NCBI GenBank assembly: GCA_044867425.1
Contig: JBIOUX010000164.1
Coordinates: 1,367 to 65,366, forward strand
Direction of reading: 5' to 3'
Origin: Acidimicrobiia bacterium
GTDB lineage: Bacteria; Actinomycetota; Acidimicrobiia; IMCC26256; BP-133
Length of the DNA stretch: 64,000 nucleotides
Part shown: piece after piece, positions 21,288-41,940 of the stretch
Numbering within the stretch: position 1 is the first letter of the stretch
Layout of the letters: every line of letters starts with the position of its first letter
Notes under the pieces: model-generated
Told to the model about the DNA's origin: nothing
Seen by the model: only the letters and a program-made list of their open reading frames with translations
The model's database searches: none
Made by a program: the position numbers and the translations under genes

Positions 21288-21584
21288 GTGTCGCTTATGG
21301 CGTTTTTCATCTGGCTGCGGGAGGAGTGGGACCGGGCCCTCGGCTTCGGTCTGACGGCCCTGGGCGGGGTCCTGATCCTGGCCGGCTGGTCGGGCGCCAG
21401 CGGCTCGCCCTTCGTGGTCGACCAGCTCTCCTATCTGATGTCGGGAGGCATCGGCGGCCTGTTCCTCCTGGGGACGGGGACCACCTTCATCCTCCTGGCC
21501 GACCTGCACGACGAGTGGCGCAAGCTCGACCGGGTGGAGACGCACTTGCGGCGGGCGCCGGGCTCGGCCCGCCGGGATGAGTAA
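21288..21584 (+). CDS. Small membrane protein, DEWRKLDR family (copy 1 of 3)
   Basis: 98 aa with two TM helices. It has SYLMSGGIGGLFLLG and LHDEWRKLDRVE and is clearly paralogous to the proteins at 25737 and 41569. Confidence 0.65.
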   Translation: MSLMAFFIWLREEWDRALGFGLTALGGVLILAGWSGASGSPFVVDQLSYLMSGGIGGLFLLGTGTTFILLADLHDEWRKLDRVETHLRRAPGSARRDE

Positions 21585-22710
21585 CCGCCGCCGGACCGGG
21601 ACCGGCCGTCCGGCATCCCCTGCTCATCGGGGGCGCAGCAACGGGAGCAGGGCCAAGCTGGTGGCCGCCGTCGGCCTGCCGCTGCTGGTGGCCGTCGGCC
21701 TCATCGGCTTGATCCCGAGCTCCGACTCGAATGACGACAACCCGGTGGTGGAATCGACCACGACCACCACGAAGCCGGTGTCGGCCGAAGCCAAGGCGTT
21801 CCAGACCCGGGTGGACGACGCCCTGCGAGCGTTCGCCGAGCGCCTGCCCCCCGTCATCAAGGCGGCGGGAGCGTGGATTGAAGGCACGGCGCCGCCGGAG
21901 AACCTGACCGGCGAGCTCTCTCTCTTCCTGCCCGAGGCGGTGAAGGCCCGCCAGGCCGTCGGCGCCATCCCGGTGTTGAAGGAGTCGCCCGGCGTGCGGG
22001 ATCTCTACCGGGACGCCGTGGGTCTCTACATCGACTTCGGCCGGGTCTACCTGACCGCCGTCGACCCGGCCGCCGAACCGCTGAAAACTCAGCTCGACCT
22101 CGCCGCCCGGCGGCTCCGCGTGCTGGCCGACCGGATCTACGACCAGGGCCGGACGCTGATCGACCCGGCCAGCCAGTCCCTGGGCGACGAGAGCGTGGAG
22201 ATCCGCCGGGCCCCGGAGGTGCCGGACTGGGAGGCGGAGGGCCTGGCCGCCGGGCCGCCCCTGGCCGAGGCGCCTCCGCCGCCGCCGGAGGCGCCGCCCG
22301 AGCGGGAAGGCGCCCGGGAGGAGGAGCCGGAGAAGGAGTGGCTGAACCGGCTGCGCAAGGCGAGGTTCCCCTCCGGAGCCGACCTGGCCGCCGCCATCAC
22401 GGCCGGCGACGCCCCGCGTCTGGGCGGGCTGGCCGAGACCTACCTGGCGTCGGTGGCCGCCCTGCGCGTCGCCCCCGACCCCGAAGGCGGCCGGGTACGG
22501 GGGGCGGTGGTGGCGCTCAGCTTCCTGGTCGACGCCGAATCGGCCCGGGTGGCACAGATGGCCGCCCTGCTGCCCGACGGGCCGGCCCGAGACCGCCTGG
22601 CGACCGTCGCCCGGCGGCTGGCCCTCATCGGAGAGAACCTGCTCGAGCCCGACCTGCGGGGCCGCCCGTCAGGCTTGGACGCCGGGCTCCTCGAGGACAC
22701 CGCCCCCTGA
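21577..22710 (+). CDS. Membrane-anchored helical protein with central Pro-rich segment, unknown function
   Basis: 377 aa. It overlaps the upstream gene by 8 nt, has the TM helix LVAAVGLPLLVAVGLIGLI, and contains PPPPPEAPPE. Confidence 0.6.
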   Translation: MSNRRRTGTGRPASPAHRGRSNGSRAKLVAAVGLPLLVAVGLIGLIPSSDSNDDNPVVESTTTTTKPVSAEAKAFQTRVDDALRAFAERLPPVIKAAGAWIEGTAPPENLTGELSLFLPEAVKARQAVGAIPVLKESPGVRDLYRDAVGLYIDFGRVYLTAVDPAAEPLKTQLDLAARRLRVLADRIYDQGRTLIDPASQSLGDESVEIRRAPEVPDWEAEGLAAGPPLAEAPPPPPEAPPEREGAREEEPEKEWLNRLRKARFPSGADLAAAITAGDAPRLGGLAETYLASVAALRVAPDPEGGRVRGAVVALSFLVDAESARVAQMAALLPDGPARDRLATVARRLALIGENLLEPDLRGRPSGLDAGLLEDTAP

Positions 22711-22714
22711 GGGA

Positions 22715-23623
22715 TCAGAGTCCCAGCGCGGCGCGATGCCAGGGCGCCGGCCCGGCCAGCTCGTGGACTTCGAAGATGCCCGTGCCGAGACGCCCACCGC
22801 ACTCGAAGACGCTGAACCCGTCGGTGAAGAAGAAGTCCCCGTGGCTGGTGACGCTGGCCACGTCCACGGTCCCCGTGATGCGGTACCCGCCACCGTCCTT
22901 TGTCCAGATGCGGGCGTCGCAGCCGGTGGGGGAGTGGCCGTCGTCGGCCACCCGGGCGCCGGTGTCGACCCGGGTGACGGGGTGGAAGCGACCGCCGTCG
23001 TAGACGTAGCCGAAGTCCTGGCGGCCCGCGGCGGTGGTGAAGCTGAAGACCGAGCAGAACAGGTCCTCGGAGAACGTGGCCCACAACCAGCGGTGGGTGA
23101 GGATGGCGCCGTAGTGGCGGGGCCCCCAGGAATGGTCCTGGTAGGCGAAGCCGGCCACCGTCGCCTCCCGGTCACCCGCCGACACGGTGCCCGCCACCCG
23201 CCCCATCGACTCGTAATGGCCCTTGCCCACGTCGGCGCCGGGGACGTCGAGGGTGAAGGAGAACGGGTCGGAGAACGCCTCGTAGACGACCTCCGCCCGC
23301 ACGCCCGGGTACTCGGCGGTGAGGGCGAGCGACCGCAGCGGCGTTTTGGTGACGACGCGCATGCCGCCGATGGCGATGTCGGGGAAGTCCTCGTCCGGCA
23401 GGGGCAGGTCGTGGGACTGGAACTTGCCCACCACCCGGCCGTCGAGCACCAACCAGCTCCACACGTCGGCCCGTCCGGCGAGGCGCTGCAGGCCCAGATG
23501 GTGGAAGCCGCCGGCGCGGGCGGCGGGGTCGTACCAACCCAGGAACCAGCTCTCCTGCCAGCGATCGTCCGCCTCGGGCCCGGGCCGGTGGGCGTCGTTG
23601 TCCTCAGGCCTGATCGTCTCCAT
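22715..23623 (-). CDS. Conserved hypothetical protein (DHSWG motif), paralogue of 16975-17937
   Basis: 302 aa with the WQES, HYESMGRVAGTV, DHSWGPR and HRW motifs. Confidence 0.7.
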   Translation of the reverse strand: METIRPEDNDAHRPGPEADDRWQESWFLGWYDPAARAGGFHHLGLQRLAGRADVWSWLVLDGRVVGKFQSHDLPLPDEDFPDIAIGGMRVVTKTPLRSLALTAEYPGVRAEVVYEAFSDPFSFTLDVPGADVGKGHYESMGRVAGTVSAGDREATVAGFAYQDHSWGPRHYGAILTHRWLWATFSEDLFCSVFSFTTAAGRQDFGYVYDGGRFHPVTRVDTGARVADDGHSPTGCDARIWTKDGGGYRITGTVDVASVTSHGDFFFTDGFSVFECGGRLGTGIFEVHELAGPAPWHRAALGL

Positions 23624-23645
23624 GCGGCTATGCTACCACCTCTTG

Positions 23646-23663
23646 CGAATGACGGTTCAGTCA
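23646..23663. promoter_or_regulatory. Operator-like 18-bp imperfect palindrome CGAATGA-CGGT-TCAGTCA
   Basis: It lies in the divergent intergenic region between 22715-23623 (-) and 23701-24282 (+). It is a member of the recurring motif family. Confidence 0.5.
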
Positions 23664-23700
23664 GCTAGGCTCCCGTGCACGGAGGATCGACGGGGGACTC

Positions 23701-24282
23701 ATGACGCCTGATCTCACTGACAAGGCCTGTGATCTGCTGCACCAGCTGCGGCTGCGCGGTTTCCTGGCCGCCACGGGCAACGCCATCGAAGCCGAACTGG
23801 CCGACGCCGGGTGTGTGGCGCTGCGGGGTTCCAACCTGGCGCTGACGCCGGCCGGGCGGGAGGGGCACGCCGCCTGGGCCCGCCTGCCCGAAGGATCACC
23901 GGCGGAGGAAGCCGGTCGCACCGCCTACCAGCGGTTCATGCCGCTGAACACCGAGTTGCTCAAGATCTGTACCGCCTGGCAGCTCCGGGACGACGGCAGC
24001 CCCAACGACCACTCCGACCGGGCCTACGACTTCGGTGTCCTGGAGCGCCTCGACCGGCTCCACGAGCGGATCGCCCCGCTCGTCGCCCGCCTGGCTGAAA
24101 CGGTGCCCCGTTTCGCCGCCTACCCGGAGCGCCTCGTCGCCGCCCTGGACCGGATCGCCGACGACCGCCAGTGGATGGCCTCACCCCGGTGCGACTCCTA
24201 CCACACCGTCTGGATGCAGATGCACGAGGACCTCCTCTGTGCCATCGGGGCGTCGCGGGCCGACGAACCCGAACCTACCTAG
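23701..24282 (+). CDS. Hypothetical protein, possible N-terminal winged-helix
   Basis: 193-aa ORF with protein-like composition. No motif was recognised. Confidence 0.55.
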   Translation: MTPDLTDKACDLLHQLRLRGFLAATGNAIEAELADAGCVALRGSNLALTPAGREGHAAWARLPEGSPAEEAGRTAYQRFMPLNTELLKICTAWQLRDDGSPNDHSDRAYDFGVLERLDRLHERIAPLVARLAETVPRFAAYPERLVAALDRIADDRQWMASPRCDSYHTVWMQMHEDLLCAIGASRADEPEPT

Positions 24283-24312: not shown

Positions 24313-25740
24313 ATGGCTGGACGGACCATCAAGCGGCACCGGCGCTGGGGACGCGGTGCCGGCGCCCTGGCCCTCCTGATGGGTGGTGCGATCTCGGTCT
24401 GGCCCGGGGCCCGGGTCTCGGCCCAGACCGGCGATTCCGGCGCCGCCCGCAGCCTGGTGGCCGCCGCCTCGGCCCAGGGCATCCGGATGACCTACACCGT
24501 CCCCGACCTCTTCGTGGTGACCGAGTTCATGGACGGCGGCGGGCCCGTGGCCCAGGCCACCGTCGACTCCACCGGCCGGGCCATCAGCTTCGCCTCCCTG
24601 CCCTACCCGGGGGAGAACGCCGTCACCGCCCCCGGCCTGGCCTCATTCGCCACGGGCGTCCCGGTGCCCAACTACCCCTTCTACGCCCGGGCCGACCATC
24701 CGGTGCAGCCCAGCTCGGAGGTGAAGGACCCGAGCGGTACCTATTCCATGGTGGCCACCGCCGACCAGGGCAAGGCGGCCGGGTCGGCCGACTTCCTCTT
24801 CGGCGGGGCCGAGGCGCCGGTGTCGGGATCGGCCGCCGACGCCTCCGGGCTCCTCGAGGGCAACGGGGTGAAGGTGGAGGCGGTCTCGGTGAGCAAGGGT
24901 CTGGATCTCGGGCAGGGGGCGCTGCGGATCGCCTCCGTCACCAGCCGCTCGGTCACGACCTACACGGCCGGGGCGGAGAAGCCGGAGACGAAGACCGAGC
25001 TCGTCATCGAAGGGGCCAAAGTCGGCGACCAGCCCGTGACCATCGGGCCCGACGGTGTGCACCCCGGCGGCCAGACGGTGCCCGTCCCCATCGGGAGCGG
25101 GACGGACAGCCTCAACCAGGCGCTCGCCCAGGCCGGCATCAGGGTCAAGACCATCGAGTTCTCCGAATTCGAGGGCGGCGCCGCCGGCGACGCGCTCGAG
25201 ATCACCGTGAAGCACCCCATTCCGGGGGCGGAGAACGTCCAGGGCACCTTCGTCTACCAGATGGGTGGAGCCACCTCCTATGTCGCCTTCGGCGAGGGCG
25301 GGATGCCGGGTCTCCCGGTCGACGACGTCCCGCTGCCGGACGGAGGTTCCGGGAACGGTCCGGTGAGCGCGGAGTCTCCGCCGGCGTCGTCGACGACGTC
25401 GGGTGGGGACGCGACCGGCGCCGCTCTGGATGTGTCGCTGCCCGCCGGCGTGGCCGGGGAGCCCTTCCCGCTGGCCCTCAGCAACGGGTCGCTGACGCTG
25501 GGCGCCGGCACCTCCTCCCAGCTGGCCGCCCCCGGTGGGGCCGGCTCCGGGGTGACGTCGGGGTCGGGGTCGTACGCCGCGCCAGCCGTGGGCGGCAACG
25601 CCCAACCGGTGGTGCTGGCCCGGGACTTCTCCGACACCACCAAGGCGCTGTTCGCCATCCTGGCGATAGCCGGGGCCGTGCTGGTGTCGTCCTCCGCGCT
25701 GTGGCGCTTCCGGGGGGTGTCGGCCCTGTGGAAGGGGTGA
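24313..25740 (+). CDS. Secreted protein with C-terminal TM anchor, unknown function
   Basis: 475 aa. It has the signal peptide GAGALALLMGGAISVWPGARVSAQ, a Gly/Ser/Ala-rich distal region, and the C-terminal helix ALFAILAIAGAVLVSSSALW. Confidence 0.65.
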   Translation: MAGRTIKRHRRWGRGAGALALLMGGAISVWPGARVSAQTGDSGAARSLVAAASAQGIRMTYTVPDLFVVTEFMDGGGPVAQATVDSTGRAISFASLPYPGENAVTAPGLASFATGVPVPNYPFYARADHPVQPSSEVKDPSGTYSMVATADQGKAAGSADFLFGGAEAPVSGSAADASGLLEGNGVKVEAVSVSKGLDLGQGALRIASVTSRSVTTYTAGAEKPETKTELVIEGAKVGDQPVTIGPDGVHPGGQTVPVPIGSGTDSLNQALAQAGIRVKTIEFSEFEGGAAGDALEITVKHPIPGAENVQGTFVYQMGGATSYVAFGEGGMPGLPVDDVPLPDGGSGNGPVSAESPPASSTTSGGDATGAALDVSLPAGVAGEPFPLALSNGSLTLGAGTSSQLAAPGGAGSGVTSGSGSYAAPAVGGNAQPVVLARDFSDTTKALFAILAIAGAVLVSSSALWRFRGVSALWKG

Positions 25741-26426
25741 GCCGGCTGCGGGCCCAGTGGGACTGGGTCGCCGGGTTCGTTCTCATGGGCCTGGGCGCGG
25801 TCCTGGTGGTGGTCAGCACCATCAGCGTGAGCGGTTCCCGCTACGCCAGCGACCAGCTCTCCTACATCGTGTCCGGCGGGCTCGGCGGTCTCCTGCTGCT
25901 CGGCGCCGGGGCCACCCTGGTCATCACCGCCGGGCTGTCGGACGAATGGCGCAAGCTGGACCGGCTGGAAGACGCCCTGCCCTACCCCAAGATCCCGGTA
26001 CCGAGCGTGCGGGTGCTCGTCCGGCGCGGCCGTCTGATCGCCGGCGCCGGGATGCTGCTGACGGCCATCTTCCTGGCCATCGCCTGGAGCCGGGCGTCGG
26101 GCGAGGCCGACCCCGAACCGGGGCTGCAGGCTCTGGGGACCGGCGTCATCGGCCTGCTCATCGGGAGCCTCATGGCGGCCTTCGCCACGCTGGGACTGAA
26201 GCGCCGCATCCAGCTCCGCAAGAACCGCCTGTTCGCGCCCTGGCTCGTGGAGAAGCTCGTGTCCGCGCCATCTCCGGCGCGGAACGGACGCGTCCTCGTG
26301 GCCACCGGCCTGACCCGATACCACCACTCCGGCTGCCCGGCCATCACCGGGCTGGCCACCCGCGAGGTGAACCGGAGCCAGATTCCCAAGGAGCTGGAGC
26401 CATGCGAACTCTGCGAGGTGGAATAG
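25737..26426 (+). CDS. Membrane protein, DEWRKLDR family (copy 2 of 3), extended with two further TM helices and a C-terminal Cys/His motif
   Basis: The GTG at 25737 overlaps the upstream stop (GTGA). It has SYIVSGGLGGLLLLG and LSDEWRKLDRLE, and a C-terminal YHHSGCP...CELC. Confidence 0.65.
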   Translation: MSRLRAQWDWVAGFVLMGLGAVLVVVSTISVSGSRYASDQLSYIVSGGLGGLLLLGAGATLVITAGLSDEWRKLDRLEDALPYPKIPVPSVRVLVRRGRLIAGAGMLLTAIFLAIAWSRASGEADPEPGLQALGTGVIGLLIGSLMAAFATLGLKRRIQLRKNRLFAPWLVEKLVSAPSPARNGRVLVATGLTRYHHSGCPAITGLATREVNRSQIPKELEPCELCEVE

Positions 26427-27976
26427 CACTGGACCGGAGCTTCTTCCGCACGGCCTCGGCTGTGCTGGCCGGGCTGGCGCTGACCTCCGGCGCGGCCTGC
26501 GGGTCACGCCTCGACACCCAGGCGCTCGAGAAGTCCAACGGCGCCTTCACGCGCGTGGCGGACACCGGCGGTGCGCCCGCCGTCCCGGGTCAGAGCCAGC
26601 TGACGCTCGAGGACGCCGCCGGTGCCGCTTCCTCCGAGCCGGGCTCCACCCCGGCCGCCGCCTCTACCGCCGTGGCGGTGGGGAGTCCGGCCGCGGGCCG
26701 GGTGCCGGCCGCCTCGGCCAGCCAGTCAGCGGGTGCCACCGGCGCCGTACCCTCAGCCGGGGGACAGCGAGCGGCCACGTCAGCCGCGGCGGCGTCGGGT
26801 GGGCCGGCCACGCCCACGCCCAGTGCGCCCGTCCCCGGGACGCCGGCGCCGGCCGCGCCGGGGGCCACCAAGTCCGAGATCCTCCTCGGCTCCTTCGGCT
26901 CCGAGTCCGGCATCCTGGGGGCGGTGAGCGGGCCGGCCCCGCCCGCCATCCGGGCCTGGGCCGCCTACATCAACACACAGGGGGGCGTGAACGGCCACCC
27001 GGTCAAGGTCATCCTGGGTGACGACAACGCCAACCCTTCCCGGAGCCAGGCGATCGTCCGCCAGATGGTCGAGCAGGACAAGGTCATTGCCTTCCTCAAC
27101 GAGTACTCCTTCGCGCTCGACTCGGTAATGCCCTACCTGGAGCAGAAGAAGATTCCCATCGTCGGCAGCATCGGCGGCCACCCCATCGGGGACCACTCCC
27201 CCATGATGTTCAACCCCCTGCTCGGCCCTGACGTGGGCCAGGCCTGGGGCTTCATCCTCAACACCCTCACCCAGGCGCCGGGCAAGAAGAAGATCGGGAT
27301 CCTGTACTGCCGGGAGGCCAGCATCTGCGCCGTCCTGAAGGACGGCTTCAAGAAGCTCCTGCCCTACGAGGGACTGGAGGTCGTCTACGAGGCGTTCGTG
27401 TCGCTGGCCCAGCCCGACTACACGGGCGAGGTCCTCCAGGCCCAGCGGGCCGGGGCGGACGTCATCCTTCCCCTCATCGACACGGCGGCCCTGAACCGGG
27501 TGGTGGCGTCGGCCCGGCGCCAGAACTACGAGCCCGCCTTTGTGGGGACCTACAACCTCAACCAGGACCTGATCTACAACTTCTCGGAGAACCTGGAGGG
27601 GATCTTCCTCACTTCCCGGATGGGGCCGTGGGACACATCGCCGCTCAACCAGACGTACCGAGACGCCATGGCCCGCTACCAGCCCAAGGCCGCCCGCGGC
27701 GACCTCGGTGCGGGCGTGTTCGTGGCCGGGAAGCTGCTCTCCGACAAGATCGGGCCCTTCATTCAGGAACCGCCCAGGACCGAGCAGATCCTCGAGGGCC
27801 TGTACGCGCTCCACAACGAGACCCTCGGCGGGCTCCTGCCCGGAGTGGGCTTCAAGCGCGACTCCGAGCACGTGGACACCAACCAGTGCATCATCCCGGT
27901 GAAGTTCACGGGCGGGAAGTTCGTGGCCCATCCGAAGTTCGTGTGCGCCCCGAATTGGAAGCCGGTCGGCACCTGA
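26402..27976 (+). CDS. ABC transporter substrate-binding lipoprotein (Leu/Ile/Val-type, type 1 periplasmic-binding fold), copy 1
   Basis: ATG at 26402. The lipobox is LALTSGAACGS, followed by ~130 aa of Ala/Pro/Ser/Gly-rich linker and then a LivJ-like core. It is highly similar to the protein starting at 62766. Confidence 0.85.
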   Translation: MRTLRGGIALDRSFFRTASAVLAGLALTSGAACGSRLDTQALEKSNGAFTRVADTGGAPAVPGQSQLTLEDAAGAASSEPGSTPAAASTAVAVGSPAAGRVPAASASQSAGATGAVPSAGGQRAATSAAAASGGPATPTPSAPVPGTPAPAAPGATKSEILLGSFGSESGILGAVSGPAPPAIRAWAAYINTQGGVNGHPVKVILGDDNANPSRSQAIVRQMVEQDKVIAFLNEYSFALDSVMPYLEQKKIPIVGSIGGHPIGDHSPMMFNPLLGPDVGQAWGFILNTLTQAPGKKKIGILYCREASICAVLKDGFKKLLPYEGLEVVYEAFVSLAQPDYTGEVLQAQRAGADVILPLIDTAALNRVVASARRQNYEPAFVGTYNLNQDLIYNFSENLEGIFLTSRMGPWDTSPLNQTYRDAMARYQPKAARGDLGAGVFVAGKLLSDKIGPFIQEPPRTEQILEGLYALHNETLGGLLPGVGFKRDSEHVDTNQCIIPVKFTGGKFVAHPKFVCAPNWKPVGT

Positions 27977-29076
27977 GCCTTTCGCTGGTCGACCCCACGC
28001 ACGACCAGAGCGGGCCGTCCACCTTCTGGACGACGGTCAACGCCGCCGAGGCACTGCCCGGCGTGTCCACCCCGCTCAACTGGACCGTGTTCGGGGCGCG
28101 GGTGGAGCGGGCCTTCCGGGGCACATTCGCCAACATGGGGGTCATCCCGCGGGCGGCCGTGGGTGTCCCGGCGTCGCTTGACGACCGGCTCTGGGGTGTG
28201 TTCTTCGGCCGGGCGGCGGCGAACCTCGATACCTTCCGCCGCCTGGCCGACCTGACCCCGGGCACCTCCGGCGACGCGCTGGAGGAGCAGATCTTCGGCA
28301 CCCTGCGGCCCGGCGTGACCAGCCACCCGTCGAAGCGCCGCTACCCGGCGGCGGCGGTGCGGATGCCGGTGGCGGCGCTGCGCCTGCCCCGGGTCCTGGC
28401 CCGGCACCGGGCGGACATCGAAGCCTTCTGGCGCCAGCCGGGGCCAGCCGGCACCGCCGACGCCCGGGCCCGTTTCACCGAGGCGCTCGTCCGGTTCGAG
28501 GCGGTCATGCAGCCCCACACGCTGGCCGCCATGCTGGCCCAGGGCATCTACGAGCAGCTGCGCAGGCTGTGCTCGGCGGCGGGCCGGCCCGGCCTCGAGA
28601 CCCGGCTGATGACCGGCTACGGCGCCTCCTTCGAGGAAACCTGCCTGATGGCCGACCTGTGGGCGGTGTCCCGCAACGTCCTGCCCCTGTCCGCATTTCT
28701 GGCCGCCCACGGCTACCACGGCCCAGCCGAGGGCGAGATCTCGAGCCGGTCGTGGCGGGAGGACCCCTCGCCGCTCACCGGCCTGGTGGAGACCTACCGG
28801 GGGATGGAGGAGTCCGCTTCCCCGGCGGCCGTGGAGGGTAGGCAGCGCCGGGGGCGGGACAGGGCGACGGCCGAGCTGCTCGGCGCCGTGGGCGGACGCC
28901 GGCGGACCGGAGCCCGGCTGCTGGTCAACGTGGCCAGCCGGTACATCCCCCTGCGAGAGGTGGGCAAGACCGCCTTCCTTCAAGCCGTCGATGCCGCCCG
29001 GGCGGCCGCCCGGGTCATGGGCGAGGACCTCGCCCGCCGGGGTGTGCTGGGCGACCCGGCCGACGTCTTCTATCTC
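27943..29076 (+). pseudogene. 5' part of a gene paralogous to the N-terminal region of 19544-21265, interrupted by the transposon
   Basis: The frame reads ...LVDPTHDQSGPSTFWTTVNAAEALPGVSTPLNW...DPADVFYL and then runs into the transposon IR. The start is uncertain (GTG 27943 or TTG 27955). The paralogue reads RVFYLRHTELHAAL at the equivalent point. Confidence 0.7.
29072..29076. repeat. Left copy of 5-bp target-site duplication (ATCTC)
   Basis: ATCTC lies immediately outside IR-L and is identical to 40138-40142, immediately outside IR-R. Confidence 0.8.
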
Positions 29077-29100
29077 GGGGTCTCCGGGGTAAAGGCGCCA
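29077..29100 (+). repeat. Left terminal inverted repeat (IR-L); may extend inward to about 29126
   Basis: GGGGTCTCCGGGGTAAAGGCGCCA matches the reverse complement of 40114-40137 at 23 of 24 positions. The inner part ends ...CCACTAACGG and contains the tnpA stop, as in Tn3-family IRs. Confidence 0.8.
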
Positions 29101-29121
29101 AAACGGCGGAGAATGGTTCCA

Positions 29122-29790
29122 CTAACGGCGCTTCGCTGACCTGAGGGGGCGGCGACCGCGTCGGTTGAGGACGCCGGCGACGTCGATGGTGTGGGTGCCG
29201 TAGGGATTGATCGCCTCAAAATGGCCGGGGCTGGTATGGGCGATGGCTTCTTCGCTGATCTCGTGGCCGTCGGCCCGTTCGGCATCGATGGCGTCTTGGA
29301 TGTAGCCGGTGGTGGAGAGGATGCAGGCGTTGGTCACCAGGGTGAGGCAGAGGGCCTGGGCGGTCTGGTCGTCGTGGTGGTGGTAGCGGAGGTCTCCGGA
29401 GTGGGCGAAGGCGAGGAAGCGGCGGAGGTCGTTGAGGGACTCGCCCTTGTTGAGCTGCCGGCCGATCCGCCGGCGGAAGGCCTCGTCGGTGAACCAGCGC
29501 AGGGCGTGGACGGTGCGCAACAGCTTGCCGTGTTCGAGGAGCGCCTTGGCGAGGGGTGCTGGCGGGACCCGGCCTGAAGCTTGGCCACGAGCAGGGAGGC
29601 CGAGACGTAGCCGAGTTTGAGCGAGCCGGCGATGCGCAGGAGTTCGTCCCAGTGCTCGGCGATGAGATCGATCTGGGCGTGGTGGTCGAGGAGCGGGCCT
29701 GCCCGGGGCCAGCCGGTGTAGCGACCCGGCGGATGGGGGCGCCAGAGCTGCCGCTCGGTGAGTTTGGCGATCCGGGGAGCCGATGCGTCG
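29122..29790 (-). pseudogene. tnpA: Tn3-family transposase, C-terminal ~220 codons only, with a frameshift
   Basis: Frame B covers 29122-29556 (AKALLEHGKLLRTVHALRWFTDEAFRRRIGRQLNKGESLNDLRRFLAFAHSGDLRYHHHDDQTAQALCLTLVTNACILSTTGY...). Frame A covers 29557-29790 (APRIAKLTERQLW...IAEHWDELLRIAGSLKLGYVSASLLVAKLQAGSRQHP). The shift is at the G-run 29553-29556. There is no homology upstream of about 29790. Confidence 0.8.
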
Positions 29791-30004
29791 CCAGGATGCA
29801 GGCATCCTTCTCATCTCACCCTTTGGTCACGCCCGCGATCGTTGCGGCACCTGATGGAATCCGGTGCGCTACGTCATCCGTGCGCCGTCTCGGTGGTGTG
29901 GTATTCGATGCCGCACCAGGACCGGCCTTCGACAGCAAAATGGAGCTCCGAAGGTTTACCCCTGGTAGGGGGAATCGCGACACCTGAACGACCCCAGAGG
30001 AGGA

Positions 30005-31771: not shown

Positions 31772-31829
31772 GCTTCACGCGTACTTTCGGTCGAAGGCTG
31801 TTCTGGTTGAATGTGAACCGTAAGCTCAC

Positions 31830-32195: not shown

Positions 32196-32208
32196 CAAGG
32201 GAATAGGC

Positions 32209-35200: not shown

Positions 35201-38200
35201 CCCCGGGGGGTCGTGTCCCTGGTCTTGTTGTCGTTGGCGTCGAAGGCCGACGTGATCCGGTTCCCCTTGGGATCGACCATCTCGACGAGGTTGTCGCGGT
35301 CGTCGTAGCGCCACTTGGTGATCCGGTTGTCCCGGTCGGTTTCCTTCACCGTGGGGCCGTAGGGGCTGTACTGGAACGTTTTGGTCTTGGCGGCGGCGTC
35401 GGTGATCCGAGTGGGGGCTCCGGTGCGGTCGTAGGCGCCGTTGGCGGCATCGGCTGTGTCGCCGTAGGTGGTCAGGTCGTCGGCGGGGTAGAGGCCGTCG
35501 TTGGCGGTTTCGCCCCGGGGGCCGTCGACGGTCTTGAGGGCTCCGGAGGTGTAGTAGGCGAAGGTGGTCGTGCGGTCGCCGGTGCACACGCCGGTGCTGC
35601 TGGAACAGGAGGGGGCCTGCGCGGCGCCGTCCGAGCGGTAGCGCTCGATGACGCTGCGGAGGTTGCCGGTGGCCGCGTCGGGGTCGAAGTCCACTACCCG
35701 CTGGGCGGTGTCACCGGAGGCGTAGGTGGCCTTGAGGAGGTCGGCGACCATGTAGCAGTAGCCTTCCTCGGTGACGTTGGCGTTGCCGGGGGCGGGATCG
35801 GTGCAGCCCGACGGGTGGCGCCAGGCGGCGTCGTAGCGGTAGGCGAGCTTGTGGGTCACGGCCACCTTGGGGGCCCCGGTGGGCAGGTCGTTGCGGCCGG
35901 GGTCGTTGGGGGCGGGTTCGGTGATCTCCACCAGGAGACCCAAGTCGTTGTACTTCATCTTCGTCTCGTTGCCGAGCCCGTCCTTCTTGGAGTAGAGGCG
36001 GTTCTCCTCCCAGGAGAACTGGCGGGTCACCGCCCCGGCGCCGAAGCCGGCGTCGATGATGGCGATGATGTTGCCGCCGGCGATGCGCCGGTCTGCCCCC
36101 GTGGGTTGGATCGCCCCCCGGCCCGAGGTGCGGTAGGTGACCTGGTCGGCCGCCGGGGAGGTCACCACCGTGTCCTGCTGGCCGGTGGTCGGATCCGGGG
36201 TGCCGTAGGCGAAGGCCCACGTCTTGGGGGTGGGCTGGGGGCTCTGGCGCCGGTCGGTCAGCGTGGTCATCTGGGCGGAATAGCCGCTGCCCGTGTAGGC
36301 GAAGCGGGTGGTGTTGCCCCGCCCGTCCTTGACCGAGGTGAGCTGCCCGCTGGTGTAGGCGAACTCGGTGGTGCGGGCGGCGTCACTGCCGCTCTGAGCG
36401 TTTTCGTTCACCTTCCACAGGCGGCCGTTGGCGTCGTAGACGAAGTCCACCCACCGCTCGTAAGAGCGGGTGGCGCCGCTCACCGGCTCCACGTCGGTCA
36501 CCCCCTGCAGGGTGGTGATCCGCGACAGGCGCCCTGTCGTGGCGTCCCAGGTCAGGCTGGCCACCACGCCGTTGCGGTTGTGGCTGATCGAGCTCAGGCG
36601 CACCTGGCCGGCGGCCAGGTTGTAGTCGAAGGTCAACGTGTCGCCGCGGCGGTCCCGGATCGAGGTGACCCGCCACGTATTGGTGGTCAGTCCCAGGGCG
36701 GGCTTGACCACCTTGAGGTTCTCCGCCTTGTAGATCACCCCGTCGGGTCGGACGAGCTCGTAGGCCGTGACCACCCCGCCGCTGACGACCTCCCGAACTC
36801 GCAGGCTCACCCCCGGCGGGGAGTCCCACCGTGATCCGATGCCGCCCTTGCGGATGAACCGCTGGGTGGTCCCGTCGCCGTCGGTGAACTCCAGCAGGTA
36901 GCCGGCGATGGTCCCTGCCCCGTCGACCACGGTGGCCGACGCCGCGGTCATCGGCGCGGCCACGTCGAAGTCCTCCAAGGCGCCTTCCACGCCGTCGAGG
37001 CCGGCGTCGAGGTCACTCACCGACAGCGACCAGCCCTGGCTCAGCCCGTTGTCGTGCAGCACGCTCGACTGGCGCTGGGAGTTGTAGACGTGGCGGATCA
37101 CCGTATTCAGCCCCTGGTTGGGGATCGTGGCGTCGTCGAAGCTGGCCGTCAGGTTGCCCGAACGCAGCTGCACGTAGCCCGTTCCCGACGAGCCGAGGGG
37201 GAACGACTTGTAGGGGGCGAACTGCTCCAGGCCGACCTGGTCGGACTGGGCCACCATGTCGGGCAGCAGGGTGGGGGAGAGCGTGACCGGATCGGCGGTG
37301 GAGTCGATGCAGATCGGCCCGTAGACCTGATCGGTGGTGTTCTTGTTGCCGGCCTTGTCGACGGTGGCGACGTGGAACCAGTAGGTGCCGTCGGCGTTGA
37401 CCGGCACCGTGTAGGTGGCGCTGAGCCCGGTGGTGTCCACCGTGTTGTCGGGAGCGGCCGCCTGGTCGTTGTTGAACACCCACGAGTAGCCCAGCACCCC
37501 CGAGGTGACGTCCGCGCCGGCGAGCCAGTTCATGCTGATCGTCCGGATCGAGGTGCACAAGTACTTGGCGTGGCTACTGGTGGTGATGGTCGGCGCGGTC
37601 GGCGGGGTGCTGTCCACCCAGATCCCGTAGTGGCGGGCAGAATCGGACCACCAGCCGGCGTTGTCCTTGGCCCGGGCGTGGACGTACCACTGCCCGTCGG
37701 CCGTGATCGAGGTGCTGTTGGTGTAGCTACCGGTGCTGTTCACCGTCGCGCCGGGGAGCGTGGAGGAGGACTGGTCGACTGATGCCGAGTACCCGGCGAT
37801 GCCGCTGGTGTCGCCCGACGGACCGCTGATGGCGGCGGCAACCGTCCGGCTCGAGTACCACTGCGCGCCCGGGGGGCTCTCCACTCCATGGCTGGAGCTC
37901 GTCAGGGTCGGTGTCCCCGGTTTGACGGTGTCGACGGTGAAGCTGGCCCAGACCGGTCCGCTGCGCTGGCGGAAGTCGTCGGCTTCTGCCGACCAGCTGT
38001 GGTAGCCCTGGCCGAGGGCGCCGGTGGTGACGCAGCCCCGGCCGTTGTTGCCCAGCGTGGCGCTGTTCCCGGACCAGACCTGGGTGCCGCCGCTGTTGTA
38101 GACCCGGAAGACGACGTAGCCGGTGTCGGCGCTGCCGGGGTTGCCCAGGTTGGGGTCCGTCCATGTCGCGCACAGCTGCGGCGTGGTGGTCGTCTGGTAG

Positions 38201-39726
38201 CCGCCGTTGGGGGCGAGGGCGCTGGCGGTGGGGGGCAGGTTGTAGACGACCCGGATGTAGGAGAGGTTGAGGAGGTCCTCGTCGGAGATGAAGGTGAAGA
38301 AGCTGTAGGGCTCCCCGCCGCTGTCGACCACGATGCCCCGGTTGTTCCAGCCGCTCTGGGAGTAGTGGGTCCAGTTGTGCACCCAGGGTTGGATGTCATG
38401 GGCGACGTACCCGCTGGCGCCCGGCCCGTAGCACTTGGAGTAGTTTCCGTCGCACAGCCCGCTCGAGAAGTGGTTCGGGCGGGTGTTGAATGTCACCGTG
38501 TTCGGGTCGTAGGGGTCGGCCACCGGCCAGAGGACGTAGCGGCTGGTGGGGTTCTGCCCCTGGATGTAGCGGTACGCGACCCATTGGCCAGTGAGGATGT
38601 TCTGGTTGTTCGCCGCGCTGAGGTCGTAGAGGAAGTAGCTGTCGTACTCCACGGTGCAGCAGGGGTAGCCGGTGTAGCCGGCCTTGGTGACGAAGCCGCC
38701 GTTGGCGGGGTCGTACTGGCCGCCCAGCGACTCGGCCCAGGTGCCTTGCTGGGTCCAGGTGGGCTGGTTGCTGCGGACGTACGAGTCCCACGAGTCGCCC
38801 CAGTCCTTGGGGAAGCGCACGTCGGGGTCGATCTTGACCGGCCACACGGTGGCCGGGTCGTCCAGCAGGCTCCGGGGGGCCTCCACCTCCACGACCAGAC
38901 CGGCGCCGTCGTCGACCAGGCGCACCGCCACCGGCGCCTGGCGGGGCTGTTGTCCGGTGGCCGGGTCGCCGCTGGAGTCCCAGGCCGCCCCTTGGTTGGG
39001 GATGGACGCGACCCGGATCCCGGCGGCGTCGTAGAAGCCGAAGCTGCCGTCGGCGCCCTGGTGGGCGGCGACGCCGGAGAGCTCGAGCGGGAAACGGAAC
39101 ACGCCGCTGCCCGCTGCGGCTGCGTTGGGCAGGCTGAGGATTTCCTTCACGACGTCGCGGCCCACCGTGTACTCCACGTCGGCGCCGCCCAGCAGACCGG
39201 GGTAGCGGACGGTGTTGCGGTCGGTCGCCGCCGCCACCGATGGCAGCATCCCCTCCAGGGTGAACCCGACGGACCAGGCGTCGGTGCCGACCTGGACCAG
39301 CGGGCCGCCGCCGGAGACGCCGGCGAAGCTCGCCGTGATCGGGCCGGAGCGGTTTCTGAATCGGCCGAGCCCGTCGGAGATGACAGTGGCGTCGAGTGGC
39401 ACCCAGCGCCCGTCCGGCGCCTGCCAGTTGACCGGCCCGGCATAGGCGAACAGCTCCCCGTTGCCGTCGGGGCGGCGGAACACGTTCGTGGTGTCCGTAC
39501 GCTGCAGCAGTTCCAGATCGGGCGGGTCCAGCGGTCCCACGTCCAGCAGGGTGGCTGTCGCCCACGGCCCCGGCGGCGGGGGGAGCGGCGGCGGTTCCTC
39601 CGCTGCTGCCGGACGCACCGGCAGACCGGTGGCCAGCACAGCCACCAGCAGGCTGAGGGTCAGCGCCCGAACGCTTCGCCCGCCCTGCCCCGAGCGCCCG
39701 CGCGTGAGGATCTTCGACAGCTTCAT
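32209..39726 (-). CDS. Rhs/YD-repeat polymorphic toxin, Sec signal peptide, WapA-like architecture
   Basis: 2505 aa.
- Signal peptide: RALTLSLLVAVLATGLPVRPAAA.
- N-terminal DNRLRE-like carbohydrate-binding-type domain (LWPVADPYDPNTVTFNTRP).
- Two Ig-like modules (VDTVKPGTPT, VDSTPPTAPT).
- Dozens of YD repeats (YDANGRL, YDALGRL, YDGEGRQ, YDADGNP).
- Core end: DRQYDPSIRRFTTED...NRYLYAAANPVGYY.
- A 171-aa C-terminal tip containing HELVH. Confidence 0.92.
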   Translation of the reverse strand: MKLSKILTRGRSGQGGRSVRALTLSLLVAVLATGLPVRPAAAEEPPPLPPPPGPWATATLLDVGPLDPPDLELLQRTDTTNVFRRPDGNGELFAYAGPVNWQAPDGRWVPLDATVISDGLGRFRNRSGPITASFAGVSGGGPLVQVGTDAWSVGFTLEGMLPSVAAATDRNTVRYPGLLGGADVEYTVGRDVVKEILSLPNAAAAGSGVFRFPLELSGVAAHQGADGSFGFYDAAGIRVASIPNQGAAWDSSGDPATGQQPRQAPVAVRLVDDGAGLVVEVEAPRSLLDDPATVWPVKIDPDVRFPKDWGDSWDSYVRSNQPTWTQQGTWAESLGGQYDPANGGFVTKAGYTGYPCCTVEYDSYFLYDLSAANNQNILTGQWVAYRYIQGQNPTSRYVLWPVADPYDPNTVTFNTRPNHFSSGLCDGNYSKCYGPGASGYVAHDIQPWVHNWTHYSQSGWNNRGIVVDSGGEPYSFFTFISDEDLLNLSYIRVVYNLPPTASALAPNGGYQTTTTPQLCATWTDPNLGNPGSADTGYVVFRVYNSGGTQVWSGNSATLGNNGRGCVTTGALGQGYHSWSAEADDFRQRSGPVWASFTVDTVKPGTPTLTSSSHGVESPPGAQWYSSRTVAAAISGPSGDTSGIAGYSASVDQSSSTLPGATVNSTGSYTNSTSITADGQWYVHARAKDNAGWWSDSARHYGIWVDSTPPTAPTITTSSHAKYLCTSIRTISMNWLAGADVTSGVLGYSWVFNNDQAAAPDNTVDTTGLSATYTVPVNADGTYWFHVATVDKAGNKNTTDQVYGPICIDSTADPVTLSPTLLPDMVAQSDQVGLEQFAPYKSFPLGSSGTGYVQLRSGNLTASFDDATIPNQGLNTVIRHVYNSQRQSSVLHDNGLSQGWSLSVSDLDAGLDGVEGALEDFDVAAPMTAASATVVDGAGTIAGYLLEFTDGDGTTQRFIRKGGIGSRWDSPPGVSLRVREVVSGGVVTAYELVRPDGVIYKAENLKVVKPALGLTTNTWRVTSIRDRRGDTLTFDYNLAAGQVRLSSISHNRNGVVASLTWDATTGRLSRITTLQGVTDVEPVSGATRSYERWVDFVYDANGRLWKVNENAQSGSDAARTTEFAYTSGQLTSVKDGRGNTTRFAYTGSGYSAQMTTLTDRRQSPQPTPKTWAFAYGTPDPTTGQQDTVVTSPAADQVTYRTSGRGAIQPTGADRRIAGGNIIAIIDAGFGAGAVTRQFSWEENRLYSKKDGLGNETKMKYNDLGLLVEITEPAPNDPGRNDLPTGAPKVAVTHKLAYRYDAAWRHPSGCTDPAPGNANVTEEGYCYMVADLLKATYASGDTAQRVVDFDPDAATGNLRSVIERYRSDGAAQAPSCSSSTGVCTGDRTTTFAYYTSGALKTVDGPRGETANDGLYPADDLTTYGDTADAANGAYDRTGAPTRITDAAAKTKTFQYSPYGPTVKETDRDNRITKWRYDDRDNLVEMVDPKGNRITSAFDANDNKTRDTTPRGQLTPSVADDFTTIWTYDNNDWQTQASWPGANPTDPRRVATVTYADDGAKTAETTPRSSSQINFAYTPNRTLKQIDAPGQTANSIDRAVTDYGYDTAGRVTQVDAPAGNTTNERARTTFTYTPSGAVAQQQVIANATQTQTTLYAYNAHGEPLQTKGPGKVGTFSHTTEQTYSPFAEVTRTRRYKTATTWVDAEVGYDQAGNQVRTAQPTGAGATLESLYRYDALGRLSAQTKDPENPSHTVAYSYDGEGRQTERLDKDGATNVRRVASVYNPDGTLQSEVAKNETAGTTLATCNYADGAGDLTSGYDADGNPLVTRTVSGTTGCTAGGTTLKTQTFAYAAANNWMTSSTQTLRSPDNGTSYSRTQSFAYEADGALDSATWDGRLTSYDHSPAGWLTSMTDWRSRASTNAYFPSGALKTAQRNNNALTGTWDYQRNGAPTSLTWNAGANVLRSHTGVLYDDGGQRTQEAVALRQPGASSTTSGTAKFAYDALNRLTSWVAPFAETSDSSQNTVYTLDDGGNITQEIARTGATAGSGSTRTTATSTFTDGRLTSRVTVYSSLIYEADCEKFWYDALGEETSRYFGYTSVFSCPSNPSATRSTSYDPAGHAAGHDDKTLNQYDINYVYDADGGLIARTDPFESGSAKTTLYFYWGSGDTLAEETDGTGQTMVRYLTDDTGQAVAQESHRTSTGDRNATATWNWLLGDLAGNVGTVCDDTGVVLEQAAFDPYGQPKTGGAGKTTSSSYGRSSLGYQHALTDRTPGSAGTTRALILKDRQYDPSIRRFTTEDSFVAGGLDLALGVDALTGNRYLYAAANPVGYYDDGHAPKGKGKNGCGPGYRKVRGPFGIWEACKPVNSKGPNITDNLARNRLVANSGGVVTECARSKSGQPVFCVQNVKRLPSADPGAGAVTYGHFIFCGGSCDSLLAHELVHVGQWEKYGDKFGIKYLIEAAKRGTGCRNKYEREAYTARGGGGCPEVRGETTEPNYSVNRRYGTSSA

Positions 39727-39907
39727 GTCGCAACTCGCCCTTCGTCAGAAATACCGCCGATGACGTCGGCGCAGGCGAAGGGCGCACTTGAAAACGCCCC
39801 GAAGATTCAGGGCCGACTGCTGGACTTCGAGGCGGTTCTCAAGTCGCCGGCGGGTCGTGCCGATGGGTCGGCTTCTGCAGCGGTCAGCTGAGCGGCGGAA
39901 CCGGCTG

Positions 39908-39934
39908 CCTTACGTCCTTACGTCCTTACGTCCT
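39908..39934. repeat. 8-bp tandem repeat CCTTACGT x3 (+CCT)
   Basis: Read directly from the sequence at 39908-39915, 39916-39923 and 39924-39931. It lies about 180 bp upstream of the Rhs start codon. Confidence 0.9.
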
Positions 39935-40004
39935 GTGGGCTGGGCCAACCCGTCTCGCCGTCCGCGACTCACTCCTCAGCGGGCCGACGAAATGCGGCGC
40001 TTCC

Positions 40005-40112
40005 CCCCTCTTCGCGATGATCACGCACTACCGCCACCGCGACGACCAGACCGCCCAGGTCCGCTGCCTCACCCTGGTGACCAACGCCTGCATCCTCTCC
40101 ACCACCGGCTAC
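40005..40112 (+). pseudogene. tnpA: Internal ~100-bp fragment of Tn3-family transposase fused to IR-R
   Basis: It translates as PLFAMITHYRHRDDQTAQVRCLTLVTNACILSTTGY. Bases 40040-40112 match the reverse complement of 29302-29374 at 71 of 73 positions. Confidence 0.8.
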
Positions 40113-40113
40113 G

Positions 40114-40137
40114 TGGCGCCGTTACCCCGGAGACCCC
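40114..40137 (-). repeat. Right terminal inverted repeat (IR-R), inner part deleted
   Basis: The reverse complement is GGGGTCTCCGGGGTAACGGCGCCA, which matches IR-L at 23/24 positions. Confidence 0.8.
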
Positions 40138-40367: not shown

Positions 40368-40371
40368 CGCG

Positions 40372-40986
40372 TCAGCGCAGCCAGGGCTCCTTCAGGTCGA
40401 GGTATTCATCGATCGTGCTGGCGGACGTCCACTCGCTGAACAGGGCCTGGGCCTCGGCGGGCATCTCCTTGGCCTCGCCCCGGCGGGCGTCGGCCTCGGA
40501 GGTGAAGTAGACGAAGTCGGTGTAGGACCCGTCGGCGTGCAGGGCGACGACGTCGCCCAGGACGTCGGGCCGGTGCCGGGCCATGATCGCCTCGGCCTCT
40601 CCCAGGCGCTTCTCCAACTCGGCCATCTTCTCCGGGTCGGTCACCCGGCCCCGCATCACCTGCACGAACTTTGCGTCGTTCGAGCCACCCCCGCGCATGG
40701 TCGTGACCTGAACGCTCTCCTGGAACATCGGGCTCTCGATGCACTTCTCCGTCTCGGCCCACCAGGCGCCCTGTTCGTCACGGCTGCTGTTGCGCTGAGC
40801 GGCGTCCTCGGACTCGAAGCGGGCCATGAGGACGAACCGACCGTCGCCGGTGATGCCTCCCGTGCTCCCGAGAAAGCCGATGGCGCCAGGACGCAGCTCG
40901 GCCTCCCACCGGTCAGCCTGGCGGAGGAGGCCTTCTCGATCGACGACGTTTCCCGTAATCACCTGGATGAACAAGGTCGCCTCCAT
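40372..40986 (-). CDS. Hypothetical protein, two tandem ~100-aa alpha+beta (ABM/Dabb-like) halves
   Basis: ORF with the start chosen at MEATLFIQV. There is internal similarity between the two halves (FIQVITGNV...RFESEDAAQ and FVQVMRGRV...FTSEADARR). Confidence 0.55.
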   Translation of the reverse strand: MEATLFIQVITGNVVDREGLLRQADRWEAELRPGAIGFLGSTGGITGDGRFVLMARFESEDAAQRNSSRDEQGAWWAETEKCIESPMFQESVQVTTMRGGGSNDAKFVQVMRGRVTDPEKMAELEKRLGEAEAIMARHRPDVLGDVVALHADGSYTDFVYFTSEADARRGEAKEMPAEAQALFSEWTSASTIDEYLDLKEPWLR

Positions 40987-41095
40987 GTCTCGCAGAGATC
41001 TCGCCGTGGACGGCTCGAACATCGTGGCGAGTCTTCGTCACCGCCGCCACCGTCCGGCATCGAAATGCCCGAATTGGTCGAGAACAGATTCCGGG

Positions 41096-41485
41096 TCACC
41101 ACACCTGGGTGCCGTCCACCTGGCCGGCTCCGGCCACGGCCGCCAGGAAGGGGCCGGCGACTCCTTCCTCGACGATCACCGCTCGCCCGGCGCGGCCCAG
41201 GGCCACGTGGTCGCCCCCGGCGCAGCCCCACCAGCGGCCGGGCGTCCAGGCCAGGTGCGTGGCGTCGCCCAGCACGGGGAGGAGGGCATTGAGGAGCTCC
41301 CACCAGGTCTCGGTGAAGTGGGCCACGACCTCGCGGGTGTCGTCGTCGTCCACCCCGGAGTGGCCGACCACCCGATCCTCCTCCACGTCCACGACCGCCA
41401 CGACCCCGGCGAGGGCGGCCACCGCCTCGACCACCGCCCGGTTCCCGGACGGCCCCCGTTCGACATGAGCATCGAGAAAGCTCAC
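41096..41485 (-). CDS. Hypothetical acidic protein (129 aa)
   Basis: This is the best-looking frame in the interval. No motif was recognised. Confidence 0.35.
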   Translation of the reverse strand: MSFLDAHVERGPSGNRAVVEAVAALAGVVAVVDVEEDRVVGHSGVDDDDTREVVAHFTETWWELLNALLPVLGDATHLAWTPGRWWGCAGGDHVALGRAGRAVIVEEGVAGPFLAAVAGAGQVDGTQVW

Positions 41486-41534
41486 CGGTTCCTCCCTTGG
41501 TACGGATTGACCCCATTTTGCCGGTTCCCTATAC

Positions 41535-41552
41535 TGAATGACGGATCAGTCA
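41535..41552. promoter_or_regulatory. Operator-like 18-bp palindrome TGAATGA-CGGA-TCAGTCA
   Basis: It lies 17-29 bp upstream of the start of the small-membrane-protein/ABC permease operon. Confidence 0.5.
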
Positions 41553-41568
41553 GACAGTCGCGGCGAGG

Positions 41569-41940
41569 GTGGGGTGCCAGATGGACGGAAAGAGCTGGCT
41601 ACGGGCGGAGTGGGACCGTGTCGCAGGATTCTGCCTCATCGCCCTGGGGGCGTTGCTGCTCGTCCTCGGCTACACGGGCGTGAGCGGTTCGCCGTATGTG
41701 GCCGAGGCGCTCTCCTACATCATGTCCGGGGGGATCGGGGGCCTCTTCCTGCTGGGCGCGGGGGCGACACTGCTCATCTCCGCCGATATCCATGACGAGT
41801 GGCGCAAGCTCGACCGGGTCGAAGACGCGCTGCGCTCGGGTGAGCCGATTCCCATGCCGGTGACGCCCGCTGTCGCCGACGCGCCCGAGGTCACCACCCC
41901 CAGCCGGGAGCCGGCCCCGTCCGAGTTGGCCACGGCGTGA
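41569..41940 (+). CDS. Small membrane protein, DEWRKLDR family (copy 3 of 3)
   Basis: It has SYIMSGGIGGLFLLG and IHDEWRKLDRVE. The start is GTG 41569 or ATG 41581. The stop overlaps the permease start. Confidence 0.65.
   Translation: MGCQMDGKSWLRAEWDRVAGFCLIALGALLLVLGYTGVSGSPYVAEALSYIMSGGIGGLFLLGAGATLLISADIHDEWRKLDRVEDALRSGEPIPMPVTPAVADAPEVTTPSREPAPSELATA

Follow-up and report, generated by a model that had tools for sequence, protein, structure and literature searches.

Three small membrane protein genes beside an importer operon

The window analysed here, a stretch of 64,000 nucleotides (70.7% G+C) from contig JBIOUX010000164.1 of an Acidimicrobiia bacterium, carries three copies of a gene for a small membrane protein family, here termed FAM, together with the genes for an ATP-binding cassette (ABC) importer of the HAAT (Liv/Urt) type. 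An earlier note on the same DNA had proposed that these paralogues specify a subunit, accessory or regulatory, of the importer family in question, and as far as sequence data reach that proposal is supported, by a genomic association that holds in both directions. All three open reading frames (ORFs) lie where the note had placed them, and when the 64 kb were translated in six frames and scanned with a hidden Markov model made from diverse family members, exactly these three were found (E = 5e-35 to 4e-44). Copy 1 (21297-21584, plus strand) encodes 95 amino acids from the ATG at 21297, and copy 3 (41581-41940, plus strand) encodes 119 amino acids from the ATG at 41581; the N-termini of homologues favour these starts over the GTG codons first proposed, at 21288 and 41569, which would give proteins of 98 and 123 amino acids, respectively. 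Copy 2 (25737-26426, plus strand) encodes 229 amino acids. Copies 2 and 3 show 53-59% identity to copy 1 over a core that measures about 85 residues, rather than the 75 or so suggested before, and alignment of the three confirmed that they share the SGGxGG and DEWRKLDR sequences: positions invariant among them include an N-terminal W-D, L-S-Y, S-G-G-x-G-G-L-x-L-L-G and D-E-W-R-K-L-D-R-x-E. The G+C content at third codon positions (GC3) in the frames concerned is 0.87-0.93, like that of the adjoining genes, and the closest homologues of the copies carry the Acidimicrobiia label. Public gene calls on a matching 124 kb contig of a metagenome-assembled genome (JBIOTU010000279.1, GCA_044866285.1) agree for copy 2 and its neighbours.

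Copies 1 and 3 consist of a stand-alone family hairpin (FAM, or hairpin A), that is, two transmembrane (TM) helices and the DEWRKLDR segment. Copy 2 contains the same core (residues 1-80; nt 25737-25976), but it is more than the longer copy it had been taken for. A second two-TM hairpin, termed hairpin B (residues 91-172; nt 26007-26252), is fused to the first and is followed by a C-terminal knob (residues 185-229; nt 26289-26423) with the H/C/C/C motif H196, C200, C223 and C226.

Each copy adjoins a different component. Copy 1 precedes, as had been noted, the gene for a membrane-anchored proline-rich protein, Pro377 (21577-22710, plus strand; 377 amino acids, anchored by an N-terminal TM helix and rich in Pro along one stretch), and the two genes share an overlap of 8 nt (ATGAGTAA, 21577-21584) that was absent from the earlier note. 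Copy 2 lies between the gene for Sec430 (24313-25740, plus strand; 475 amino acids), to which it is coupled through the GTGA at 25737-25740, and that for a substrate-binding protein, whose ATG at 26402 precedes the copy 2 stop at 26426 to give the reported overlap of 25 nt; the public calls on JBIOTU010000279.1 give the same overlap. Copy 3 is coupled through a second GTGA, at 41937-41940, to the permease gene. These couplings are as first described.

The permease gene (41937-43859, plus strand) encodes a fused LivH-LivM protein (LivHM) of 640 amino acids in which BPD_transp_2 is found twice (PF02653, two stretches, E = 7e-44), the UrtB/LivH models fitting the N-terminal half and the LivM/UrtC models the C-terminal half. 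Searches of the PDB with LivHM found no solved structure of a related permease. It is followed by the gene for a LivF/UrtE-like ABC ATPase (43859-44560, plus strand; 233 amino acids; UrtE 1e-61, LivF 5e-52). The substrate-binding protein (26402-27976, plus strand) belongs to Peripla_BP_6 (PF13458 at 5e-41) and has a low-complexity N-terminal linker of about 160 residues. By the criteria tested the window operon is a HAAT-family ABC importer, though with a LivF-like ATPase only. A single LivF/UrtE-like ATPase with no LivG-like gene after it is also found at the related loci L005, L006, L012 and L013; the majority of related operons encode two ATPases.

Two-way linkage of FAM to one clade of permeases

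A forward set of 79 loci was assembled by scanning one genome per GTDB species with the peptide pattern D[EQ]WRKL... alone; genes were called with a home-made score based on GC3, and clustered by BLAST. The loci come from Actinomycetota (Acidimicrobiia, Sporichthyaceae/Frankiales, Pseudonocardiaceae including Actinophytocola and Haloechinothrix, and Streptomyces), with one contig binned as Burkholderiales, and cultured strains with the operon include Streptomyces jeddahensis G25, S. endophyticus YIM65594 and Haloechinothrix halophila YIM 93223. The recurrent gene order is binding protein and/or Sec430, then FAM, then hairpin B with its knob, fused LivHM, and two ATPases in succession. Downstream linkage could be evaluated for the 67 FAM genes with at least three genes called downstream. 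In 61 of these 67, LivHM is among the next three genes downstream and on the same strand, and in 62 an ABC ATPase is nearby, so the family is not one that is widespread with no linkage to transporters, the finding that the earlier note had named as speaking against its proposal. A knob partner is fused or adjacent to 51 FAM genes, and to 10 more after recovery of missed ORFs. Directly upstream, the commonest gene is that for Sec430 (30/74); in 20/74 cases it is the binding-protein gene that stands there. The spacing is tight, with an overlap of -4 nt to the downstream gene in 26 of 74 cases and of -13 or -4 nt to the upstream gene in 25 of 67. At the 39 fully flanked loci, LivHM and an ATPase are each present in 38, the binding protein and Sec430 each in 34, and the last two together in 31. 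The arrangement around copy 1, in which FAM stands between a gene for a protein with a phosphoenolpyruvate (PEP)-utilising domain and that for Pro377, recurs in relatives of the window.

The reverse survey started from the LivHM permease alone, which fetched 80 metagenomic loci, 65 of them with enough upstream DNA; a FAM and/or knob ORF lies upstream in 23 of the 65. When the presence of FAM was mapped on a tree of 129 permeases, only 5 Fitch changes were needed, against about 35 with shuffled labels. The FAM-less permeases form essentially one block, of about 910-950 amino acids in length, whereas FAM-linked permeases have about 640-700. At the FAM-less loci (L096-L161, on metagenome contigs) the binding-protein gene precedes the permease gene and one LivF-like ATPase gene follows it, and no FAM, hairpin B or Sec430 genes were found at these sister-clade loci. 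The length of these permeases and the missing first ATPase suggest that they are LivH-LivM-LivG fusions. Two loci that at first appeared negative are L095, where FAM and hairpin B are present but the genes are ordered differently, and L112, which carries Sec430. The module is close to universal within the LivHM clade of about 640-700 amino acids, and absent outside that clade.

In Sec430, a constant additional partner that typically has about 430 residues, a signal peptide leads to an extracytoplasmic core that is all-beta, and a disordered linker connects this core to the TM anchor at the C-terminus. The predicted structure comprises a confident all-beta core (residues 48-326) and then a disordered stretch of about 100 residues; in the anchor helix one Trp is invariant and one Arg nearly so. 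Searches found neither a family match nor a PDB match for Sec430, and Foldseek returned for its model only beta-barrel noise of low TM-score; given its presence at 34 of the 39 fully flanked loci, it makes up a family of its own that has yet to be studied. Pro377 likewise had no Pfam or NCBIfam match. Members of its family sit after the ATPase gene in L012, L013 and L026.

Architecture of the hairpins and the knob

An exhaustive profile search placed 1177 representative clusters in the FAM family at E<=1e-3, and 583 at E<=1e-10. Two architectures are found. Short proteins of about 90-150 amino acids, including copies 1 and 3, consist of the core alone; long ones of about 220-380 amino acids, including copy 2, have one or two cores, two more TM helices, and a C-terminal sequence of the form GLTRYHRxGCP...PCxLC. 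The H/C/C/C motif is present in 67 of the 91 family proteins of at least 220 amino acids, and in an alignment of 24 diverse sequences the His and the three Cys are the sole invariant positions of the C-terminal segment, which conforms to H-x3-C-x(17-22)-C-x2-C. In most genomes hairpin B and the knob are encoded by a separate gene directly 3' of the FAM gene, and often overlapping it. The profiles of hairpins A and B match in hhalign (probability 97.6%, E = 3e-12, a score that TM composition may flatter), so that hairpin B can be read as a diverged duplicate of hairpin A.

An AlphaFold2 model of copy 2, computed with 57 homologues (pLDDT 91.4, pTM 0.72), has four long helices (residues 2-33, 37-80, 91-121 and 126-172), with residues 185-227 forming a small beta domain. 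The second and fourth helices far exceed the thickness of a membrane, and DEWRKLDR is accordingly taken to be a helical extension. The earlier note had described two TM helices followed by a cytoplasmic DEWRKLDR segment: hairpin and motif are both evident, while the cytoplasmic side is deduced from charge. The distribution of Arg and Lys predicts a cytoplasmic location for the N-terminus, the DEWRKLDR segment and the knob. Hairpin A would then begin in the cytoplasm with the pattern W-x-R-x-x-W-D-R and pass through TM1 into a short, conserved loop on the outer side; a Gly-rich TM2 (SGGxGGLxLLGxG) would lead back and run on into the cytoplasm as the DEWRKLDR helix. To judge by its motif, the H-x3-C...C-x2-C knob is presumably a metal site, putatively for zinc.

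The note's author had not recognised the family, and no Pfam, NCBIfam, PDB or Foldseek assignment was found for it. The three copies and seven homologues gave no match above cut-off in Pfam-A or NCBIfam, only sub-threshold matches or none. The Pfam tag PF25957.1 is precomputed on 3 of 120 homologues (P0073, P0074 and P0086), and a local Pfam scan at E<=1 did not reproduce it. Sequence and profile searches of the PDB found nothing for full-length copy 2 and nothing credible for the knob, and Foldseek matched the model of copy 2 only to generic helical bundles, ExbB and designed proteins (E >= 0.09). When 24 knob sequences were compared with Pfam, the sole matches were weak ones of 3 sequences to DUF6233 (best E = 0.0015), below curated cut-offs. 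The named homologues of FAM are all labelled 'hypothetical', save for a few generic automatic labels, and no publication on the FAM family or DUF6233 came up in a literature search, nor any on small subunits in Liv-type transporters.

Two candidate relatives of the knob were considered and rejected. The N-terminal domain of Ada holds a Cys4 zinc site in which the ligands are spaced x3 ... x2, and the spacing H-x3-C-x(17-22)-C-x2-C in the knob is similar; however, the knob is membrane-tethered and no knob sequence matches the Ada zinc domain model (Ada_Zn_binding, PF02805) at E <= 1. Anti-sigma factors of the ZAS type are marked by H-x3-C-x2-C in an N-terminal domain and by an ECF sigma factor gene next door. 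Such an identity is contradicted by the order of the knob motif, in which H-x3-C is followed by a distant, C-terminal C-x2-C, and no sigma factor family recurs in the neighbourhood.

A candidate accessory subunit of the importer

The most likely interpretation of the linkage is that one clade of actinobacterial HAAT (Liv/Urt-type) ABC importers is expressed together with the module and physically includes it; that FAM and hairpin B together form a physically associated accessory membrane subunit of this importer clade seems to us rather probable. Hairpins A and B would form a four-helix integral membrane module, made either as one polypeptide, as in copy 2, or from two adjacent overlapping genes. 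The importer would then be composed of the Peripla_BP_6 protein, Sec430, fused LivH-LivM, the LivG/LivF ATPases and the FAM/hairpin B module. The Gly-rich helix might pack on helices of the permease, on the single anchor helices of Sec430 and Pro377, or on both, and such packing would tie these two extracytoplasmic proteins to the transporter; a docking role of this kind fits the window, where each FAM copy adjoins a different anchored component. On the inner side, the cytoplasmic helix extension and the metal knob could reach permease loops or the ATPases, and so stabilise or gate them.

Several points weigh against this interpretation. A role in regulation or in assembly would likewise be consistent with operon linkage and co-inheritance. 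The GC3-based gene caller missed small ORFs, and about 10 hairpin-B ORFs had to be recovered by a motif scan; the permease tree is a simple neighbour-joining tree. Six FAM genes have no LivHM within three genes downstream: copies 1 and 2 in the window and L006 are still part of one and the same extended transporter locus, at L030 the LivHM gene comes at a greater distance downstream, and L003 is the sole case with no adjacent permease or ATPase gene, a distant binding-protein gene being found at the edge of that locus. Metal binding by the knob is assumed from its motif, in a domain that neither Pfam nor the PDB recognises. Finally, the sister clade of apparent LivH-LivM-LivG fusions works without the module, which is consequently no general need of fused Liv permeases; that broader idea is ruled out.

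A different reading of the same operons, which we consider unlikely, is that they encode a regulatory or sensory module, in which the knob would sense a metal, the redox state or a metabolite and, with hairpin A as its partner, would either switch the transporter, as in trans-inhibition, or signal to a regulator. The invariance of the four knob ligands and the cytoplasmic location predicted for the knob by charge distribution and model would suit such a role, as would the TetR and IclR genes that often adjoin the operon, and a sister clade that transports without FAM is what an add-on regulator would lead one to expect. Yet the module has a fixed place between the binding-protein and permease genes, with overlaps of 4 nt, which suggests stoichiometric co-translation with structural parts. 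There is moreover no constant signalling partner, such as a sigma factor or kinase, among the neighbours surveyed, the regulators that adjoin the operon come from different families in different genomes, and copies 1 and 3 have no knob.

It is tempting to go further, and to suggest that FAM, hairpin B with its knob, Sec430 and Pro377 turn a Liv-type importer into a larger, envelope-associated uptake machine for poorly soluble organic compounds, although we regard this as quite unlikely. The four-helix module would then be a hub docking the anchor helices to the permease, with the metal knob gating ATPase activity, and the whole would be a functional counterpart, on a different permease, of the Mce systems. 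According to two reports, the latter are actinobacterial ABC importers for hydrophobic catabolic substrates, and depend on several extracytoplasmic proteins with anchors as well as on small membrane proteins of an accessory kind (Mas/Mam, LucA/OmamA) (PMC5487216; PMC13492129). The likeness to Mce is speculative and would be one of function: the Mce permease is YrbE where LivHM is found here, MCE-domain proteins take the place of Sec430, and no homology between the two systems was detected.

It is also conceivable, if very doubtful, that FAM serves only to organise the anchor helices of Sec430 and Pro377 in the membrane, as their tether or as an assembly factor, with no direct role in the transport cycle. 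The frequent place of the Sec430 gene directly upstream, often overlapping FAM by 13 or 4 nt, is in keeping with this, as are the conserved Trp and Arg of the Sec430 anchor helix, the coupling of copy 1 to Pro377 at a site that adjoins no permease gene, and the different membrane-anchored component beside each copy in the window. The binding protein, however, takes the place of Sec430 directly upstream in 20 of 74 cases, and at canonical loci FAM and hairpin B always stand immediately before LivHM. Tethering also overlaps with the preferred reading, that of an accessory subunit of the importer, and does not exclude it.

Lastly, that FAM is an independent small membrane protein (holin-like, channel-like or stress-related) that merely travels with operons, or that the genes are spurious, is highly improbable: sub-threshold matches to Phage_holin_2 (PF23778; 15.2 bits, E = 0.025, against a cut-off of 32) and other small TM families, the position of L003, and a Gly-rich helix that recalls glycine zippers, which are pore-forming helix motifs, stand against Pfam matches that all fall far under curated cut-offs, the lack of phage context, the transporter linkage and co-segregation with the permease tree, and, in the case of spurious ORFs, which are thereby ruled out, against the coding signal, the mark of purifying selection and the existence of over 1000 clusters of homologues.

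Comparison with known transport systems

The HAAT importers, exemplified by E. coli LivJ/K-HMGF and by UrtABCDE, have the same types of binding protein, BPD_transp_2 permease and LivF/UrtE-like ATPase as the window system. To our knowledge, accounts of the classical HAAT systems list five parts and include no additional small membrane protein. The window system differs in its LivH-LivM fusion, and operons of its type add FAM, hairpin B with the knob, Sec430 and sometimes Pro377. What is known here is a Liv-type ABC importer; what is new is probably a set of previously undescribed accessory membrane subunits.

Small accessory membrane proteins have precedents in other transporter families. CbiN and NikN are small two-TM auxiliary subunits encoded in operons for ECF-type Co/Ni importers, sometimes as fusions, and are a required membrane component. 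FAM and hairpin B show the same operon logic. On the other hand, there is no Pfam-level similarity between CbiN/NikN and FAM, the importers are of the ECF type rather than binding-protein-dependent HAAT systems, and CbiN/NikN have no Cys/His knob. DctQ (4 TM) of TRAP transporters and TctB of TTT transporters are small membrane proteins, either separate from or fused to the large permease, and are thought to be scaffolds. The FAM module resembles them in being a small membrane protein of roughly four helices; but theirs are secondary transporters rather than ABC systems, and neither Pfam nor Foldseek gave a sequence or fold match to the FAM module.

Liv/Urt-type importers are held to be five-component systems. 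If the accessory-subunit interpretation is true, a sizeable actinobacterial clade of them would work with parts that have gone unrecognised, the two or three extra membrane-bound components spanning Acidimicrobiia, Frankiales-like lineages, Pseudonocardiaceae and Streptomyces. It would also provide a functional context for families so far annotated as 'hypothetical', namely FAM with its more than 1000 clusters, hairpin B with the knob, Sec430 and Pro377. Beyond what the earlier note contained, the new elements are the fused second hairpin with its knob, Sec430 as a constant partner, and the splitting of the locus described below.

Age of the copies and history of the locus

In a related genome (contig_1402 of MFD09206.bin.2.84; loci L001, L002 and L006) all three copies recur, and their order is unchanged. 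Orthologues in the window and L006 are 74-80% identical (74% for copy 1), against 54-66% for paralogues; since orthologues are closer than paralogues, the triplication is older than the split between the two genomes, and a recent local duplication is ruled out. The ratio of nonsynonymous to synonymous substitution rates (dN/dS), 0.21-0.46 for the orthologous pairs, shows each copy to be under purifying selection.

Alignment with the syntenic locus L006 revealed an insertion of about 11 kb in the window (29076-40137), with copy 2 and the binding-protein gene on one side and copy 3 and the permease gene on the other. Within it are a Tn3 DDE transposase fragment (29122-29814, minus strand), a stretch of low G+C at about 29.5-32.2 kb, and a gene for an RHS-repeat protein of 2505 amino acids (32209-39726, minus strand); a gene for a protein of about 210 amino acids at 40372-41022 is likewise missing from L006. 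Without the insertion copies 2 and 3 would be only a few kb apart; the two are parts of one transporter locus that a mobile element has split.

Just upstream of copy 3 there is a promoter-like sequence close to the consensus, TTGACC-17 nt-TATACT (41507-41535, plus strand), overlapped by a palindrome, ACTGA-N8-TCAGT (41533-41550, plus strand), which may be the 'operator-like motif' that had been mentioned in front of this copy. Copies of the palindrome with one mismatch occur in two other intergenic regions (61018-61035 and 62691-62708). The three matches compare with 0.7 expected, and 4 of 100 shuffled sequences reached three.

Neighbouring genes and the possible substrate

The operons sit in catabolic islands. 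In various genomes the genes around them encode aldehyde and alcohol dehydrogenases, cytochromes P450, luciferase-like monooxygenases, acyl-CoA dehydrogenases and CoA ligases; TetR or IclR regulator genes adjoin them, and PaaA/C-like genes are also among the neighbours. On the strength of the CoA ligase, acyl-CoA dehydrogenase, P450, dehydrogenase and PaaA/C-like neighbours, the imported substrate is probably an organic catabolic compound rather than amino acids. This setting is also why the extra parts may bear on the uptake of hydrophobic or aromatic carbon by Actinomycetota.

Proteins with a PEP-utilising mobile domain (similar to rifampicin phosphotransferase or PEP synthase) and DUF7064/DUF7065 proteins are encoded in the window at 16099-17937, 19544-21265, 22715-23623 (minus strand) and 27943-29139. 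Such proteins recur beside the transporter operons in L032, L036, L040, L095 and L112, which hints at an ATP- or PEP-dependent activation of the imported substrate.

Two further conserved genes of the window, which also recur among its relatives, belong to no family. One, c18 (23701-24282, plus strand; 193 amino acids), is recurrently found upstream of the Sec430 gene. The other, c22 (41096-41485, minus strand), a small gene for a protein of 112-129 amino acids, is divergent from copy 3. The products of both might be regulators. Additional paralogues of the Peripla_BP_6 type are encoded at 51252-52361 (minus strand) and 63378-63998, and the paralogue at the 3' end of the window has about 81% DNA identity to part of the binding-protein gene of L006.

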